From NCBI GenBank assembly GCA_951406725.2, contig OX597834.1:28396001-28460000 (forward strand): a stretch of 64,000 bases of DNA, written 5' to 3'. The notes below the pieces were generated by a model that worked only from the letters and a program-made list of their open reading frames with translations, ran no database searches and was not told the DNA's origin. This DNA comes from Octopus vulgaris (taxonomy: Eukaryota). Made by a program: the position numbers and the translations under genes. Of this stretch, positions 659-57,231 are shown piece after piece (the stretch's first letter is position 1; each line of letters opens with the position of its first letter).

Positions 659-660
<2 letters not shown>

Positions 661-861
661 CCATGTTGATTCGCTAGCCTCTGCACGCATTTTTTTTCTC
701 TCCTTGTTTCTTTCTGTGTTTCTTTTCTGTGTATCTTTCTGTTGAAGAGCGCAGGCTCGAAACATAAAAGACTTGTTTTATTTATATTCCTGAGCGCCAT
801 ACTAATACAATTGTTTGTTTGTACTCCACCTGCCTTCGTCTTTTGTCTATTTTCATAAAGC
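659..861 (+). mobile_element. Short Penelope-like/retrozyme-like non-autonomous element, copy 1, inserted in (TA)n
   Basis: Homologous to 16466-16642 (+), 15243-15416 (-) and, more distantly, 57066-57231 (-). Flanked on both sides by (TA)n. Contains hammerhead-like motif 734-771. Confidence 0.7.
734..771 (+). ncRNA. Minimal type I hammerhead-like motif (decayed; stem III G>A)
   Basis: UCUUU-CUGUUGA-A-GAGC(gcag)GCUC-GAAAC-AUA-AAAGA; stem I UCUUU/AAAGA and stem II are intact. Confidence 0.5.
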
Positions 862-2979: not shown

Positions 2980-3080
2980 TGTCAAAAGTGGGATTCGAGC
3001 CCACGCCCACGTTCGTGGACCAGAGTACTCAATGTTCTGGTTAACGTACCTGGCGCCTTAGACCACTCGGCCATTCTGAC
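2980..3080 (-). pseudogene. Intron-containing tRNA-Leu (CAA-type) pseudogene lacking the anticodon loop
   Basis: Minus strand GTCAGAATGGCCGAGTGGTCTAAGGCGCCAG-[intron-like GTACGTTAACCAGAACATTGAGTA]-CTCTGGTCCACGAACGTGGGCGTGGGCTCGAATCCCACTTTTGACA. Acceptor stem GTCAGAA/TTTTGAC, D arm, long variable arm and T stem all pair. The expected ACTCAAG is absent and T54>C. Confidence 0.85.
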
Positions 3081-3688: not shown

Positions 3689-4093
3689 GTGGTGGTGGTG
3701 TTGGCTGCAGTGGGGGAGGTGGTGGTGTAGGCTGCAGTGGGTGAGGTGGTGGTGTAGGCTGCAGTGAGGGAGGTGGTGGTGTAGGCTGCAGTGGGTGAGG
3801 TGGTGGTGTAGGCTGCAGTGGGGGAGGTGGTGGTGTAGGCTGCAGTGGGTGAGGTGGTGGTGTAGGCTGAAGTGGGGGAGGTGGGCGTTAGGCTGCAGTG
3901 GGTGAGGTGGTGGTGTAGGCTGTAGTGTGGGAGGTGGTGGTGTAGGCTGCAGTGGGGGAGGTGGTGGTGTAGGCTGCAGTGGGTGAGGTGGTGGTGTAGG
4001 CTGCAGTGGGTGAGGTGGTGGTGTAGGCTGCAGTGTGGGAGGTGGTGGTGTAGGCTGCAGTGTGGGAGGTGGTGGTGTAGGCTGCAGTGGGGG
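3689..4093. repeat. 27-bp minisatellite (GGAGGTGGTGGTGTAGGCTGCAGTGGG), ~15 units
   Basis: Direct tandem repeats; one variant unit near 3885. Confidence 0.95.
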
Positions 4094-4619
4094 TGGCGAT
4101 GAAGATGATGATGATGATGATGACGACGATGGTGATGGTGGTGATTACGATGACGGCGATCATGATAATGATGATGGTGGTGGTGGTGGTAGTGGTGGTG
4201 GTACGGTGGCAAGCAGTGGTTCTGATGGCGGTAGGACGGGAGAGGCATGCAGGCAGCGGTGCAGTATATATATTATGTAGATTTATTGCAGCAGACATGC
4301 AGGCTGCCAGTAAACCAATAAATAAGGGGCGGAAGTGTAGATGGAAGGTGGAGGGGCAAAGGGTCGAGCGGAGCGTGGGAGGTGGGAGGTGGGGGTGGGT
4401 GTTAGGGGTTTAGCCGCACAGTCAATCAGTCAATCAGTCATATGACCCTTGCATGACCTCGTCTTCACCTTTATTTAGTTTCCAACTTTGGATCAAAACT
4501 ATATCGAAATTCATATCTTTACGATGCATAAATATTTGTGTCCGCCCTGGTTTTTTCTCTCTCCGGATGCCTCTTAATCTGCACCAAGGATCAAACTCGC
4601 ACATGGAACGCCATTATAG

Positions 4620-4667
<48 letters not shown>

Positions 4668-4672
4668 ATATA

Positions 4673-4704
<32 letters not shown>

Positions 4705-5102
4705 AGTGTGTACGTGTATTTTTCATCTATCGATCAATCCAACACACACAAACACACACACACACACACACACACAAACTTAATCGCGCGCACATAGATA
4801 AATTTACGATGTATGTATGTATGTATATGTGTATGTATGTGCGTATGTATGTATGTATGTATGTGTGTATGTATATATGTATGTATGTGTGTATGTGCGT
4901 ATGTACGTATGTATGTGTGTATGTATATATGTATGCGTGTATGTATGTATGTATGTGCGTATGTACGTATGTATGTATGTGCGTATGTACGTATGTATGT
5001 GTGTATGTATGTATGTGCGTATGTATGTATGTATGTATGTATGTATGTATGTATGTATGTGTGTGTGTGTATGTATGTATGTGTGTATGTATGTATATAT
5101 GT

Positions 5103-5264
5103 AGGAGTGGCTGTGTGGTAAGTAGCTTGCTAACCAACCACATGGTTCCGGGTTCAGTCCCACTGCGTGGCATCTTGGGCAAGTGTCATCTGCTATAGCC
5201 CCGGGCTGACCAATGCCTTGTGAGTGGATTTGGTAGACGGAAACTGAAAGAAGCCTGTCGTATA

Positions 5265-5350
<86 letters not shown>

Positions 5351-5563
5351 TGTGTCTGTGTTTGTCCCCCTAGCATTGCTTGACAACCGATGCTGGTGTG
5401 TTTACGTCCCCGTCACTTAGCGGTTCGGCAAAGGAGACCGATAGAATAAGTACTGGGCTTACAAAGAATAAGTCCCGGGGTCGATTTGCTCGACTAAAGG
5501 CGGTGCTCCAGCATGGCCGCAGTCAAATGACTGAAACAAGTAAAAGAGTAAAAGAGTAAGAGT
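5103..5563 (+). mobile_element. SINE family A (tRNA-like head, internal (TA)n(TG)n, (TAAAAGAG)n tail)
   Basis: A-box TGGCTGTGTGG, B-box GGTTCAGTCCC; more than 10 homologous copies in the window. Confidence 0.9.
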
Positions 5564-6140
5564 ATGTATATATATGTATGTATGTATGTATGTGTATATG
5601 TATGTATGTATGTGGGGATGTGTGTGTGTGTGTGCGTATGTATGTATGTGGGGATGTGTGTGTGTGTGTGTGCGTATGTATGTATGTGGGGATGTGTGTG
5701 TGTGTAAGTGTCTGACTGGCGACTGTTGGTGCTGCCACCTACAGTTGCTTTTGGAGTTACAGAAGGGAAAAGGAAAATAATTTACTAAGAAACAGAAGGG
5801 GGGGTAGAGTTTCCATTTAAGGAAAAGGGTGACACGGGGATGGGGTGATAAAGGAAGATACGGAATACGGAATAATAAGGAAAAGACACACAATAAATGC
5901 GAACATGCTCAAACACGCATCAGTTATCAACCAAATATTGCCACTGTTTTGACATATCTATAATCCTAGATCCAATTTAATCCGTATCGGATAATCCGAG
6001 GAGAAACAATGCTTAAGTGTCTTAAGATGTGTACGTACTTCTCATCCACCATTTCCAACTGATTTTGCACATATTTCGTTCTACAGAATGTTTTCTTTTA
6101 CTGTTTTCCGTTTCTTACCTTTTCTAGGTTCCCCCCCCCT

Positions 6141-6240
6141 TCTGCTCTGATGAAGAACAAACATTCCGAAACGTAAAAAACATTCCGAAACGTAAAAAAC
6201 ATTCCGAAACGTAAAACACATTCCGAAACGTTAAAACATT
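6141..6240 (+). ncRNA. Hammerhead-like motif with canonical CUGAUGA core and ~4x 19-bp tandem amplification of its 3' half
   Basis: CTGATGA (6147-6153)-AGAACAAACATTCC-GAAACGTA, then repeats of CATTCCGAAACGTAAAAAA. Stems are weak or decayed. Confidence 0.4.
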
Positions 6241-6644
6241 TTTACGCTATGCTTCATTCCAGCATGGAACTATAATATTATCTGTAAATATATAGTTTGT
6301 TTCTGTTGTTTTTAAAATACTTTCTCGTAAATATACGTTTGTATATGTGAGCGCACGTACACGTATGTTTTTATATATGAGCATGTATCTCTCTTTATAT
6401 AAATATGACATATACATTTACAACGATGTGTATTTATAACAAAAGTATTTGCAGGGTGAAATTCCTCTTGTCTCTCTTTCAAATGATATTCTACACCTTT
6501 ACCTAGTCACAACCCCGCCAACAAAATTACAAGGCGTAAATGACAAAAGCAGCAACGGAGACTGTTTACTTTAATATATAGGATTGTTTAGTGAAATTTG
6601 ACGACCAGATATGTGTAAATGGTTCTCTGTCCATGAAGGCAGTC

Positions 6645-6676
<32 letters not shown>

Positions 6677-6855
6677 TGAAATAGCAGAAACTGTGCAAAC
6701 AGTGCAGACAACTTCACATTATATCAAAGTATGTCTCTTTGTACATCGACGGAGCTAGTTTAAAATCGACATTTAGGCGTAGACACGATGAAAGAATATT
6801 AGGTTAATTTGTAACCATTAGACCAGGAGTTCTCGATCTTTATTATTATTATTAA

Positions 6856-6910
<55 letters not shown>

Positions 6911-7335
6911 GAGGTGAAATGCTTGGTGGTATTTCGCCCGCCACTACGTTCTGAATTCAAATTCCGCCGAGGTCAACTTTCTCTTTCATCCTTTGGGTGT
7001 TCATAAATTAAGTACCAGCTGAGTACTGGGATCGATGTAATCGACTTAACCCCTTCCCCCAAATTTTCAGGCTTTGTGGCTATAATAGAAAGGATTATTA
7101 TTAAGTGAGAGAGCAGTGCATGCCATCAAAGTGACACTGGAGTAAAATATACGAAGCCCAGTATACTCATCATGACTACCCGTCTCATAAGGGTACACCA
7201 GGAACATGCATCAATTTGCTCGACTAAAGGCGGTGCTCCAGCATGGCCGCAGTCAAATGAGTGAAACAAGTAAAAGAATATATATATACACACACACACA
7301 CACTACATATTTTATACAGATCCATACGCACACAC

Positions 7336-7377
<42 letters not shown>

Positions 7378-7378
7378 T

Positions 7379-7477
7379 ATGAAAGAATGGAGTCGAACGA
7401 AGATGTTAACAAAATTCCTTCTCCACTTGTTGGAGAAGGAATTTTGTTAACATCTTCGTTCGACTCCATTCTTTCAT
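7379..7477. repeat. Perfect inverted repeat, 47-bp arms, 5-nt loop
   Basis: 7379-7425 is the exact reverse complement of 7431-7477. Confidence 0.95.
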
Positions 7478-7696: not shown

Positions 7697-9106
7697 ATAG
7701 GAGGGTTTAATATCGGAAACAAAGGAGAAGGAAAGATCCCGAGAAGGGAAGACAGAGGAAAAAATTTTTTGCTGGTGGTGCTAGAGATCACTGTCGTATA
7801 TATACATACGACAGGCTGCTCTCAGTTTCCGCCCACCAAAATCCACTTAGAAAAATTTGCTCAAATTCATCGCCAACAAAGGAATCCTTAAATTTGTTCC
7901 CTGGTTAATATCAATAAGCATGTTTAGTGGTCTTCATTAGGTTTGAGTTGAAGTTCCAAGCAAGGTTTTATTGGCTTCGATGGATGGTTCAGCATGCAAT
8001 ACTCTCCTTTCGTCCAAGTGTTGCTCATCATGTGTCTATGGTTGCGATGGAATAATCCAACGGGAAAAAGGGAGAAAGAGTCAAGGGGGAAATAGAGAGT
8101 GATAGAAAGGGACATAGACGGTCGTGTGTGTGTGTGTGTGAGAGGGAGAGAGAGATAGAGAGAGAGAGAGAGAGCTTTTGTTTATTTAATCTAAACCACC
8201 ACTGGCCCGATTTGACGAAATATTTGTTCATGATAAACGTCAATGTTAAATAGGACAACGAAAGAGAAACATGATGAAAGTGGTGTGGGGAGACAAAGTG
8301 GAGGAGAGAATGATGGAGGGAGAGAGAGATGAGAGAGAGAGAGGGGAGAGAGGGAGGGGATGTGGGTGAAAAAGAATGAAATAGATAAAGAATGTAAGGG
8401 AAACAGGTTGGAGGAAGAGGAAAAATAAACAAGGAAGGAGAATAAGAAAGGAGGAAGAGTCGAAGAACGAGGAGAAGGATGAGAGCGAGAGAGAGAGAGG
8501 AAGAGAGAGAAGAGGAGAGAGGGAGAGGGAGAGAGTGAAAGAGAGAGAAGGGGAGAGAGAAAAGGGGGAGAGAGAAAAGGTGAGTGAGTGAAAAGAGTCG
8601 AAGAACGAGGAGAAGGATGAGAGCGAGAGAGAGGGAGAGAGTGAAAGAGAGAGAGAGAAGGTGGAGAGAGAAAAGGGGAGAGAAGGTGAGTGAGTGAAAA
8701 GTAAAACAGAAGATGAATGTAAAGGAAACAGGTGGGAGGAAAAGGAAAGAAAGAGGAAAATGAACGAAGGAGAATAAATGAAAAAGAAAGAGAAAGAAGT
8801 GGAGAACGAGAAGAGAGAGAGAGAGAAAGAGCGAAGAGAAAGCTGGAGAGAGGGAGAGAGAGAGAGAGAGAGAGCCGGAGAGAAAGACAGGCAGACAGTA
8901 AAGGGTGAAGAGGTTAGCAGGGTATAAAGAAAGAAAGAAAAAAAAATATGCGGAATGCAGACGACACAGAAAAAACGTCAAGAGAGAGAAAGAGGAAGAG
9001 GAAGAGACAAAGAGAGAGAAAAGCTAAGAGAAAAATGGGGGAGAAAGGGTGAAAAAGACTGAAGCAGACAGACAGATAGATAGAGATATAAGACAGACGT
9101 AGATTT

Positions 9107-15024: not shown

Positions 15025-15186
15025 ATATATATATATAGTTAATCCAAATAAGAAAACACAAAAAAAAAGGGCGAGGAGGACGTGGAACAAATAAAGTATT
15101 ATTGGACGCTCAGGAAAGAAGGGAAGGAAAGATCCCGAGAAGGGAAGACAGAGGAAAAAAATTGCTGGCGGTGCTCACGAGGTCAC

Positions 15187-15242
<56 letters not shown>

Positions 15243-15244
<2 letters not shown>

Positions 15245-15416
15245 GGAGAGTTCACGAAAAAAACAAAAGACGAAGGCAGGTGCTGTAGAAAACAAACAGA
15301 TGTATTAGTATAACGCTCAGGAATTGAAAAAGTCTTTTACGTTTCGAGCCTACGCTCTTCTACAGAAAGGGACACAGAAAAAAAAACAAGGAGAGAAAAA
15401 ATATGTTGTAGTGGCT
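15243..15416 (-). mobile_element. Penelope-like/retrozyme-like short element, copy 3
   Basis: Homologous to 659-861; abuts (TA)n; hammerhead-like motif 15333-15370. Confidence 0.7.
15333..15370 (-). ncRNA. Minimal type I hammerhead-like motif
   Basis: CCUUU-CUGUAGA-A-GAGC(guag)GCUC-GAAAC-GUA-AAAGA. Confidence 0.55.
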
Positions 15417-16465: not shown

Positions 16466-16641
16466 CGTTAGCTCCCACACGCATTTTTTCTCTCCTTGTT
16501 TCTTTTCTGTGTATCTTTCTGTCGAAGAGCGTAGGCTCGAAACGTAAAAGACTTTTTCTATTCCTGAGTGCCATACTAATACATTTGTTTGTTTGTACTC
16601 CACCTACCTTCGTCTTTTGTTTATTTTCGTAAACCTTCCCG

Positions 16642-16642
<1 letters not shown>
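16466..16642 (+). mobile_element. Penelope-like/retrozyme-like short element, copy 2
   Basis: Between (CA)n(TA)n and (TA)n; hammerhead-like motif 16514-16551. Confidence 0.7.
16514..16551 (+). ncRNA. Minimal type I hammerhead-like motif (best preserved)
   Basis: UCUUU-CUGUCGA-A-GAGC(guag)GCUC-GAAAC-GUA|AAAGA: 5-bp stem I, 4-bp stem II, palindromic ACGU stem III, NUH site GUA. Confidence 0.6.
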
Positions 16643-16701
<59 letters not shown>

Positions 16702-34322: not shown

Positions 34323-34586
34323 AGTCGCCATTGCTTTTCTTGTTCTTGCTGATGCTGATGCTTTTCCCACACCTTCTTCTGTTGTTATTTAACCCTAGGC
34401 CAAGACCAAAGGCATTTGCAGCTATCCTTCTTCTGTTGTTATTTAACCCTAGGCCAAGACCAAAGGCATTTGCAGCTATAAATATTTATAGCTGGAAATG
34501 CCTTTGGTCTTAGCCTAATAACAACAGAAGAAGGTGTGGGAAAAGCATCAGCATCAGCAAGAACAACAAGATAAGCAACGGCGACT
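34323..34586. repeat. ~100-bp-arm imperfect palindrome with a 54-bp tandem duplication in the left arm
   Basis: Centre CAGCTATAAAT|ATTTATAGCTG at 34483/34484; units 34372-34425 and 34426-34479. Confidence 0.9.
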
Positions 34587-50901: not shown

Positions 50902-51385
50902 GCTACTGGATGTTTTGATTTGACCGTTTGCATTAAGTTGGCCTAACATAATAGAGGTACGCAACTAAACATTTTTTTCACGTTCTACAATTCGACCACT
51001 GCTTTGTTATTTCCTAGTTTTCTTTCCTTCCTTCTTTCCTTCTTTTCCTTCTTTCTTTCTTTCTTTCTTTCTGACTGCATAAAAAACAACTGTTCCTTCA
51101 GAGTCGATAAAATAAGTATCAGTTTGAGCACTGGGCTTGACATAATCGACTGGCCCCTTTCACGCAAAATGTAACGCCTTGTGCTTATAAAAGAAGGAAG
51201 TCCTACGAGCTGATAGAACACCGTAAAACTGGACAAAATAGTTAGCGGCATTTCGTCCCTCTTTGCGTTCTGATTTCAAATTCCGCTGAGGTCGAGTTTG
51301 CCTTTCATTATTTGGGAGTCGATAAATGAAGTACCAGTGAAACACTGAGGTCGATGTCATCGACTAGTCCCCTCCCCCCCCAAAT

Positions 51386-52158
51386 TTCAGGCCTTGTACT
51401 TTATCATCTTGTACCTTCAGGCCTTGTACTTTATCATCTTGTACCTTCAGGCATTGTACTTTATCATCTTGTACCTTCAGGCCTTGTACTTTATCATCTT
51501 GTACCTTCAGGCATTGTACTTTATCATCTTGTACCTTCAGGCATTGTACTTTATCATCTTGTACCTTCAGGCCTTGTACTTTATCATCTTGTACCTTCAG
51601 GCATTGTACTTTATCATCTTGTACCTTCAGGCCTTGTACTTTATCATCTTGTACCTTCAGGCATTGTACTTTATCATCTTGTACCTTCAGGCCTTGTACT
51701 TTATCATCTTGTACCTTCAGGCCTTGTACTTTATCATCTTGTACTTTCAGGCCTTGTACTTTATCATCTTGTACCTTCAGGCCTTGTACTTTATCATCTT
51801 GTACCTTCAGGCCTTGTACTTTATCATCTTGTACCTTCAGGCCTTGTACTTTATCATCTTGTACCTTCAGGCATTGTACTTTATCATCTTGTACCTTCAG
51901 GCATTGTACTTTATCATCTTGTACCTTCAGGCCTTGTACTTTATCATCTTGTACCTTCAGGCCTTGTACTTTATCATCTTGTACTTTCAGGCCTTGTACT
52001 TTATCATCTTATACCTTCAGGCCTTGTACTTTATCATCTTGTACCTTCAGGCCTTGTACTTTATCATCTTGTACCTTCAGGCCTTGTACTTTATCATCTT
52101 GTACCTTCAGGCCTTGTACTTTATCATCTTGTACCTTCAGGCCTTGTACTTTATCATC
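51386..52158. repeat. 30-bp minisatellite GC(C/A)TTGTACTTTATCATCTTGTACCTTCAG, 25 full units plus partials
   Basis: Direct; begins at the tail of a SINE B (51195-51400). Confidence 0.97.
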
Positions 52159-52843
52159 AGGGCAGTGAGCTGGTGGAATTGTTACCGCATCGGACAAAGA
52201 TGTCTAGCATAATTTTTGCAGACAGGTTACGTTGTGTATTTCTTCCGCTCTTTTAGTTCTGTGTTCAGATATTCCACCAAGGTTAACTTACCTTTCATCT
52301 TTTCGAGGTCGATTAAATAAGTACAAGTCAAAAACTGGAGCCGATGTTATCAACTTGTTTGTTCCTTACCCTAAAAAAAACAAAAAAAAAACTGCTGGCC
52401 TTGTGCCAGAAAATTAAAAAGAATTATCATTATTATTATTATTGTTATTATCAAAGCTTTTCATTTGGAAAGTTCCTGCAACAGATACCGATTACCCACC
52501 TCCCCCGTTCCTCTCTCCAAACTTTTTTCGCTTTTGACGAGGAACACATGTTCCTTACTTCAACCAACGATGGCCACCAGGAAACAATTTAGATGTCAAA
52601 AGCGATTCGAAACTAACTTCCACGTCGCCAAGGCACCTCCCATAACCACCACCACTACCACCGCCACCACTTCCATCCGCTTAGAGAAAGGAACAAGCTG
52701 TTTGTAGATGGTGGTGGTGGTGGCGGTGTTGGCGTCTCTACGAATATCGTTGGAAAGTTTGGTGGTAAACTTTTATGAAACTTTGTAAAGTCTTAATACT
52801 GGACTTCATTGAAAGCTGGAATAACTGGGAGAATAAACTGTAA

Positions 52844-57065: not shown

Positions 57066-57067
<2 letters not shown>

Positions 57068-57231
57068 CAAATGTATGAAAATCATGACAAGGCCAGATGA
57101 GGGAACAATAAACAAGGTTCATTGGTTTGACGCTCAGGAAAAAGGAAAATGTCTTTGACGTTTCGGACCTTCGTTCTTCGACAGGAAGGGATGAGAGGGT
57201 AAAAAATGAAGAGAGAAAAAACCGCCAAAAC
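57066..57231 (-). mobile_element. Penelope-like/retrozyme-like short element, divergent copy 4
   Basis: Shares ACGCTCAGGAA and hammerhead-like motif 57152-57189 (CCUUC-CUGUCGA-A-GAAC(gaag)GUCC-GAAAC-GUC-AAAGA); lies between (TG)n tracts. Confidence 0.6.

Follow-up and report, generated by a model that had tools for sequence, protein, structure and literature searches.

A Penelope-like element ends in a minimal hammerhead motif with U at core position 6 and is dispersed through TA-type microsatellites

The window analyzed here, that is, the whole 64,000-nt stretch of Octopus vulgaris DNA, contains four related elements, and a check of the sequence confirmed the coordinates and strands that an earlier note had assigned to them: copy 1 at 659..861 (+), copy 2 at 15243..15416 (−), copy 3 at 16466..16642 (+), and copy 4 at 57066..57231 (−). 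The four align with one another over their whole length, and a profile built from them retrieved all four from the window at E-values of 1e-38 to 1e-49, with the next match at E 0.03. Each adjoins a (TA)n or (CA)n tract, and each carries the core letters previously read from it, namely CTGTTGA at 739 (+) in copy 1, where the palindrome has decayed to ACAU, CTGTAGA at 15365 (−) in copy 2, and CTGTCGA at 16519 (+) and 57184 (−) in copies 3 and 4. Downstream of each core follow one bulged A, a 4-bp stem II, GAAAC(G/A)T, H17, and the stem I partner. Copy 3, which we interpret as the 5'-truncated 3' end, or pseudo-LTR (pLTR), of a Penelope-like element (PLE), belongs to the youngest subfamily. Its minimal type I hammerhead motif spans 16514..16551 (+), as read from the sequence, and the predicted fold contains both stems, I and II. 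Stem I (16514-16518 paired with 16547-16551) encloses C3-A9 (16519-16525, with U6 at 16522 and N7 at 16523), the bulged A (16526), stem II (16527-16530 with 16535-16538, loop GUAG), GAAA (16539-16542), the palindrome ACGU (16542-16545), and H17 (16546), directly after which the cut is predicted, all on the + strand. The fixed 3' end of this copy meets a (TA)n tract (16643..16700, +), which is the likely insertion target. Copy 3 has 2,154 candidate matches in the genome, the best 40 of which, itself excluded, share 93-97% identity with it, and its sequence also terminates a full element described below (L062). Copy 4 is an old, diverged copy (75-86% identity to its nearest relatives) with a mismatch adjoining the core in stem I and a privately mutated stem II; its GUC triplet is the usual state in its subfamily.

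The count of four relatives stood as far as these elements are concerned, and two more are present in the window. The one at 15038..15188 (−; profile E 4.5e-5) is a sister-lineage (B) end that has lost its whole hammerhead core between a pair of CCTTC direct repeats, and a distance of 55 nt separates it from copy 2 in the same TA tract. The other, at 6142-6230 (+), has a decayed canonical core, CTGATGA ... GAAACGTA, with poorly pairing stems; after it, a 19-nt unit that includes CCGAAACGT occurs four times in tandem. No remnant of a PLE ORF was found in the window. Elsewhere in it, positions 2980-3080 (−) gave a 101-nt Rfam tRNA match of 41 bits, above the gathering score, which is probably the head of a tRNA-derived SINE. 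A 21-bp unit forms a long tandem array at 51330-52210, where several frames are open, and an inverted repeat of ~220 nt at 34343-34563 was matched as a weak miRNA-like hairpin.

Upstream of longer copies of the element in the genome, we found a CT-rich stretch and then reading frames with the motifs YGRYIDDIIG, CSRPRCRTC, and YIGQTG. The upstream extension of these copies thus reaches an ORF, and the window copies are therefore almost certainly PLE ends, truncated from an autonomous element. The separate non-autonomous family envisaged by the earlier note was rejected in view of these same longer copies, which continue seamlessly into an autonomous PLE, first its 3' UTR and then its ORF. An element encoding reverse transcriptase (RT) and GIY-YIG endonuclease and sharing the pLTR was found: among ten wider stretches, one (L062) holds a complete element in the order pLTR, TATATAT, 5' UTR, ORF, CT-rich 3' UTR, pLTR, and TA repeat. 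Both of its pLTRs contain the hammerhead motif, as CUGUUGA at 3776 in the upstream pLTR, ~750 nt upstream of the ATG of the ORF, and as CUGUCGA at 8156 in the second one. The ORF (4528-7434) is unbroken and encodes 968 aa with RT, a Zn-linker, and GIY-YIG. Pfam revealed an RVT_1 match (E 6e-8), and comparison of the protein with 8000 scored candidates yielded 825 at E ≤ 1e-20, many of them with PF00078 and some with PF01541, which we take to be GIY-YIG in these homologues; identity to one candidate was 54% over 732 residues. In the Pfam search of the L062 protein itself, GIY-YIG remained without a match, and this protein carries a private change in the GIY-YIG motif; a comparison with solved structures found no match either. 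The YIDD and YIGQTG motifs are present in several copies, and L062, with its private substitutions in conserved motifs, need not itself be active. No intron-like joint over the L062 5' end was listed in sequencing-run contigs, which show neither ends nor strand.

The junction of pLTR, TATATAT, and 5' UTR recurs in a second locus, L069. There and at L062:3907-3915, the TATATAT beyond the insertion end is a possible built-in primer-pairing site for (TA)n. On the strand opposite the main element, L069 also contains an AT-rich, distant PLE ORF fragment (27% identity, same cysteine linker), which indicates that several PLE lineages coexist in the genome. Regarding classification, the main element combines a PLE-type RT plus a C-terminal GIY-YIG in one ORF with pLTRs derived from partial tandems, 5' truncation, and a fixed 3' end, as in endonuclease-bearing (EN+) PLEs. 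The CX4CxxC linker (CSRPRCRTC, in several copies) and the microsatellite targeting are features of the Neptune clade, and the element fits the Neptune type as the available text of PMC8557442 describes these features, the linker being common to Nematis.

To quantify these ends, we used an unselected sample of 120 stretches of 10 kb (1.2 Mb) with a broader profile and a reversed-DNA control. Fifty-four ends were recovered, versus none in reversed DNA. On our reading, 33 of them are U6-lineage ends, 20 come from sister lineage B, whose loop II differs, and 1 represents a third family. Scaling of the 33 hits per 1.2 Mb to 2.8 Gb gives roughly 50,000-110,000 U6-lineage copies, which bears out the very high copy number presumed from the window. 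Targeting of microsatellites was likewise borne out, with 49 of the 54 ends (raw tally) stopping in a TA-type repeat. Among the 30 best hits, 28 core-pattern loci share a common 3' end, followed by a TA-type repeat in all but one, and differ at their 5' ends. Head-to-tail arrays are absent among the 54 unselected hits, where eight pairs lie no more than 600 bp apart, most of them inverted or mixed in lineage; one head-to-tail pair of short copies (L018) occurs among the 30 best hits. Thirty-five unselected copies could be aligned to long references, and 31 of these start 9-103 nt upstream of the core (51-103 nt in 21 of the 35), four extend beyond 270 nt upstream, and none ends between 104 and 270 nt. 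Their 5' ends are ragged, with no first base common to all 35. A count confined to the cut-site position uncovered just 17 genomic matches in which a copy begins there, next to (TA)n, with one local repeat supplying four of these, versus more than 15,000 matches that span the site. Most copies thus cross the predicted cut site, and the RNA templates were therefore uncleaved.

The motif is of the Penelope-type minimal type I hammerhead class, as the earlier note had recognized: stems I and II, the bulge after A9, G10.1-C11.1, GAAA, a loopless palindromic helix III, and NUH are all present, and the layout matches the published consensus except at position 6. A relaxed minimal-hammerhead pattern gave 43,025 genomic matches, versus 66 in the reversed control, and among the first 100 of these, from the start of one contig, 61 have U6, 21 differ by U4C only, 16 are canonical, and 2 have C6. 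Only 16 of the 100 listed being canonical, descriptor-based ribozyme counts can miss most copies. That standard searches overlook the variant, as had been anticipated, was also evident with Rfam, which returned no hammerhead hit at E 10 on the 173-nt element; over the whole window, no hammerhead appeared among the 150 listed of 308 matches, mostly microsatellite-driven miRNA. Two further loci, L144 and L127, have single hammerhead-like motifs with a long palindromic helix III and cores CCGATGA and TTGAAAA, unrelated to the families treated here.

The proposal that position 6 is fixed as U while N7 varies held genome-wide. Exact matches to a 29-nt scaffold numbered 15,252 with U6, 168 with A6, and 397 with C6 or G6, so that U6 accounts for 96% of 15,817 and the sequence departs from CUGANGA. 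The unselected sample gave the same picture, with U6 in 26 of 27 U6-lineage copies with a readable core. Clustering of 240 ends produced nine U6-lineage groups of at least five members, 3-13% from their own consensus, and in all nine U6 is the majority among copies not selected for position 6, some of these consensuses resting on 2-5 such copies. In the old-subfamily core, the first 100 of 462 matches comprised 86 U, 9 C, 4 A, and 1 G, and 30 A6 copies inspected individually were mostly single changes inside U6 subfamilies. An older sister subfamily, all A6 and with the same stem II, was considered and rejected: its A6 came from query bias, the unselected tally being 86 U6 in 100, and the tree, mostly unresolved, lent such a group no support. 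Within the motif, the nine consensuses differ at 2 of its 36 columns (N7 and H17), versus 25 of 75 downstream columns (Fisher P 9e-4, a value that overstates independence because the groups are related); over all flanks, badly aligned 5' ends included, 72 of 139 columns vary. N7 takes all four bases, and H17 is A, C, or U and never G among the consensuses, G17 having only 113 exact genomic matches. Contigs of four sequencing runs with four organism labels evidenced the same pattern, with N7 and H17 variable and position 6 not (2% threshold). Loop II GUAG is as invariant as the core, and no compensating core change is present beside U6.

U6 is thus a real trait of the lineage. The outgroup state is A6, which lineage B and related elements of other organisms carry: it occurs in 24 of 25 lineage B copies, and 80 metagenome loci with related elements gave 13 hammerhead hits, every one of them with A6, versus 0 hits in the reversed control. 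Lineage B (for instance L072:2569-2605) has 12,002 exact matches genome-wide, and about two thirds of the first 100 of these show U4C, which has spread independently and is a known natural hammerhead variant (PMC3088659, available portion).

Covariation of the stems within the lineage, which the earlier note expected, was not found, no pair having more than one double change among 212 copies. The G-C to A-U change in stem II of copy 4, previously taken as compensatory, proved to be private decay, occurring in 1 of the 212 aligned copies (0.26 expected by chance) and, at this third pair of stem II, in none of the 29 nearest relatives, so copy 4 provides no evidence of covariation. The change adjoins a broken A-U pair (A.C) and an altered loop, and the subfamily of copy 4 mostly retains a GAGC/GCUC stem II. 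Comparison of lineages shows a single stem I pair that is C-G in one and G-C in another, and the stems of the related elements from metagenome loci came from a scan requiring pairing. The monomer fold is no more stable than shuffled sequences (z −0.05 for copy 3), and in free cofolding of two monomers the hammerhead dimer was not the minimum-energy form. We also considered, and dropped, a pairing of U6 with A15.1 that would lock the monomer: its P of 0.42-0.98 in 10 of 11 isolated U6 38-mers, versus at most 0.10 in six A6 ones, fell to a mean of 0.15 with natural flanks, and canonical cores mispair alike.

From this anatomy, the element's own GIY-YIG endonuclease and RT likely wrote the short copies into (TA)n microsatellites. 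The protein would nick (TA)n DNA and prime cDNA at the pLTR end, as the anatomy and the Anolis Poseidon element (PMC11167929) suggest; since TATATAT follows the pLTR end in each of two independent long copies, base pairing of the RNA with the nicked (TA)n target would be possible. The cDNA would usually halt 50-100 nt upstream of the core, through early termination or at the 5' end of the RNA inside the upstream pLTR, and either stop would lie past the cut site. A single A6 to U change probably occurred in the ancestor of the lineage. In published tests, substitutions at position 6 do harm: available parts of the reports on A6C indicate kobs below 0.1 per min (PMC3088659) and, in another hammerhead, 3.6e-6 per min at 0.3 mM Mg (PMC7151607), and a mutational scan, as far as its available text goes, found all CUGA-turn mutants low in activity except a C3-G8 swap (PMC9901934). 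The slower core may have been acceptable since the RNA used for insertion is uncleaved, and the fold would be retained so that tandem or read-through transcripts could now and then be cut as dimers with the help of protein. In lizard, a Penelope hammerhead needs the protein of its element for cutting, and insertion in vitro can do without the ribozyme (PMC11167929), with which, by analogy, the uncleaved templates here agree.

On the sequence evidence, we are inclined to regard the motif as a putative ribozyme that is slowed but still selected, and whose cleavage would depend on dimer formation or on help from a protein. The drift confined to N7 and H17 counts in favor of a retained ribozyme, as it follows hammerhead rules, and the invariant loop II, which catalysis alone would not require, counts against it. 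A bolder version, which we put forward tentatively and rather doubt, holds that the A6U ribozyme is active and protein-switched, U stopping the RNA-only reaction and the RT-endonuclease restoring cutting in tandem transcripts. Alternatively, the hammerhead of this same element could be catalytically dead and its sequence kept for protein binding on the RNA or as an internal pLTR promoter, a possibility that we take seriously without expecting it to be correct. Changes at position 6 cripple the hammerheads tested, according to the available portions of PMC3088659, PMC7151607, and PMC9901934, and Naiad elements proliferate without canonical hammerheads (PMC8557442, available text); loop II being as invariant as the core, the uncleaved RNA templates, and the 21 of 35 copies with 5' ends 51-103 nt upstream of the core, as a pLTR start site would give, also speak for a dead motif. 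However, drift of N7 and H17 only is what hammerhead chemistry predicts, unlike a generic binding site, and A6C retains low but real activity in tests.

Two other explanations are far less probable than a retained but slowed ribozyme. A neutral passenger, in which a single master copy acquired U6 by chance and the motif has had no function from then on, is highly improbable. One master lineage can indeed fix any base, position 6 is somewhat more variable in older subfamilies (14 non-U among the first 100 matches), and A and C copies are scattered over the tree of one subfamily; but only 2 of the 36 motif columns changed while a third of the downstream columns did. We also consider it quite improbable that the short copies constitute a separate ~200-nt non-autonomous family, retrozyme- or SINE-like, transcribed from solo copies and mobilized in trans. 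Such a family would account for the 31 short copies among 35 with none ending at 104-270 nt, a gap that a constant truncation rate would not give, and for the head-to-tail short pair in L018. Nevertheless, the short copies have no 5' base in common, share subfamily-diagnostic bases with ORF-bearing copies, and form no arrays among the 54 unselected hits, whereas retrozymes, in the available text of PMC7229834, consist of tandemly repeated units whose hammerheads are canonical.

As a class, the element is ordinary. A survey by Luense, Weinberg and Breaker from 2017 (RNA Biol 14:1499) reportedly dealt with small PLE hammerhead variants. It is already in print that Penelope ends carry minimal hammerheads, that truncated copies of these ends are dispersed, and that variants of the core exist (PMC4209133, available portion). 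A lineage-wide A6U was not found in the published literature, our coverage of which is incomplete, and that survey or the PMC4209133 supplement may list it. The role of the hammerhead in PLEs is stated to be unclear in the available text of PMC8557442, and a 'required' base that changed long ago while the rest stayed frozen, in ~50,000-110,000 copies, amounts to a natural experiment on this role. Should the motif cleave, the rule for hammerhead cores is less strict than supposed; should it fail to, a second function, not a catalytic one, belongs to it. Were the protein-switched A6U ribozyme true, it would be the most numerous hammerhead in the genome, unseen by CUGANGA and Rfam searches, animal ribozyme counts would be much too low, and a natural A6/C6/G6/U6 series would be at hand for testing the purpose of Penelope hammerheads.

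Among known systems, the metazoan PLE hammerheads of Cervera and De la Pena (2014, PMC4209133) resemble ours in the available portion of that paper, being type I motifs in the pLTR with a U-rich 5' flank, a bulged base after A9, G10.1-C11.1, a loopless palindromic helix III, and NUH, and occurring mostly as single dispersed copies, thousands per genome, ascribed to truncated elements. Their minimal consensus (U-rich, CUGANGAH, G...C, GAAAN, palindrome, NUH) and descriptor demand CUGANGA, whereas U6 is found here; core variants (U3-A8) do occur among them, and none of the three 'cugu' passages searched in the supplement holds a CUGU core. The Neptune and Nematis EN+ PLEs (Craig et al. 2021), as the available text of PMC8557442 presents them, share with this element a single ORF with RT, CX2-5CxxC linker, and C-terminal GIY-YIG, pLTRs in partial tandem, heavy 5' truncation, microsatellite bias, and a hammerhead near the 3' end, but differ from it in the core, which is non-canonical here; the motif sequence was not found in the searched part of the PMC8557442 supplement. 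Anolis Poseidon (Frangieh et al. 2024, PMC11167929) also has a hammerhead in its repeated end and AT-rich targets, and there unprocessed RNA is the insertion substrate and reverse transcription starts inside the RNA. However, the Poseidon hammerhead has a canonical core and overlaps the start codon, instead of lying ~750 nt upstream of the ATG, and its start site is non-homologous to the target, whereas the TATATAT junction here matches it.

Non-LTR retrozymes (PMC7229834; bioRxiv 10.64898/2026.07.22.740005) are alike in being non-coding units of 150-400 nt with type I hammerheads and kinship to Penelope ends, but the available text of these reports describes circular RNAs and arrays in tandem in which two or more ribozymes are complete, in contrast to the dispersed, 5'-ragged copies here, which are continuous with an ORF. 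A natural counterpart in base change is the A6C hammerhead of phage Bcep176, which likewise carries a substitution at core position 6 (PMC3088659, PMC7151607). That hammerhead, according to the available portions of both sources, is a single phage motif with C6, slow in Mg and rescued by Mn, whereas the putative ribozyme described here has U6 and resides in tens of thousands of retroelement ends.
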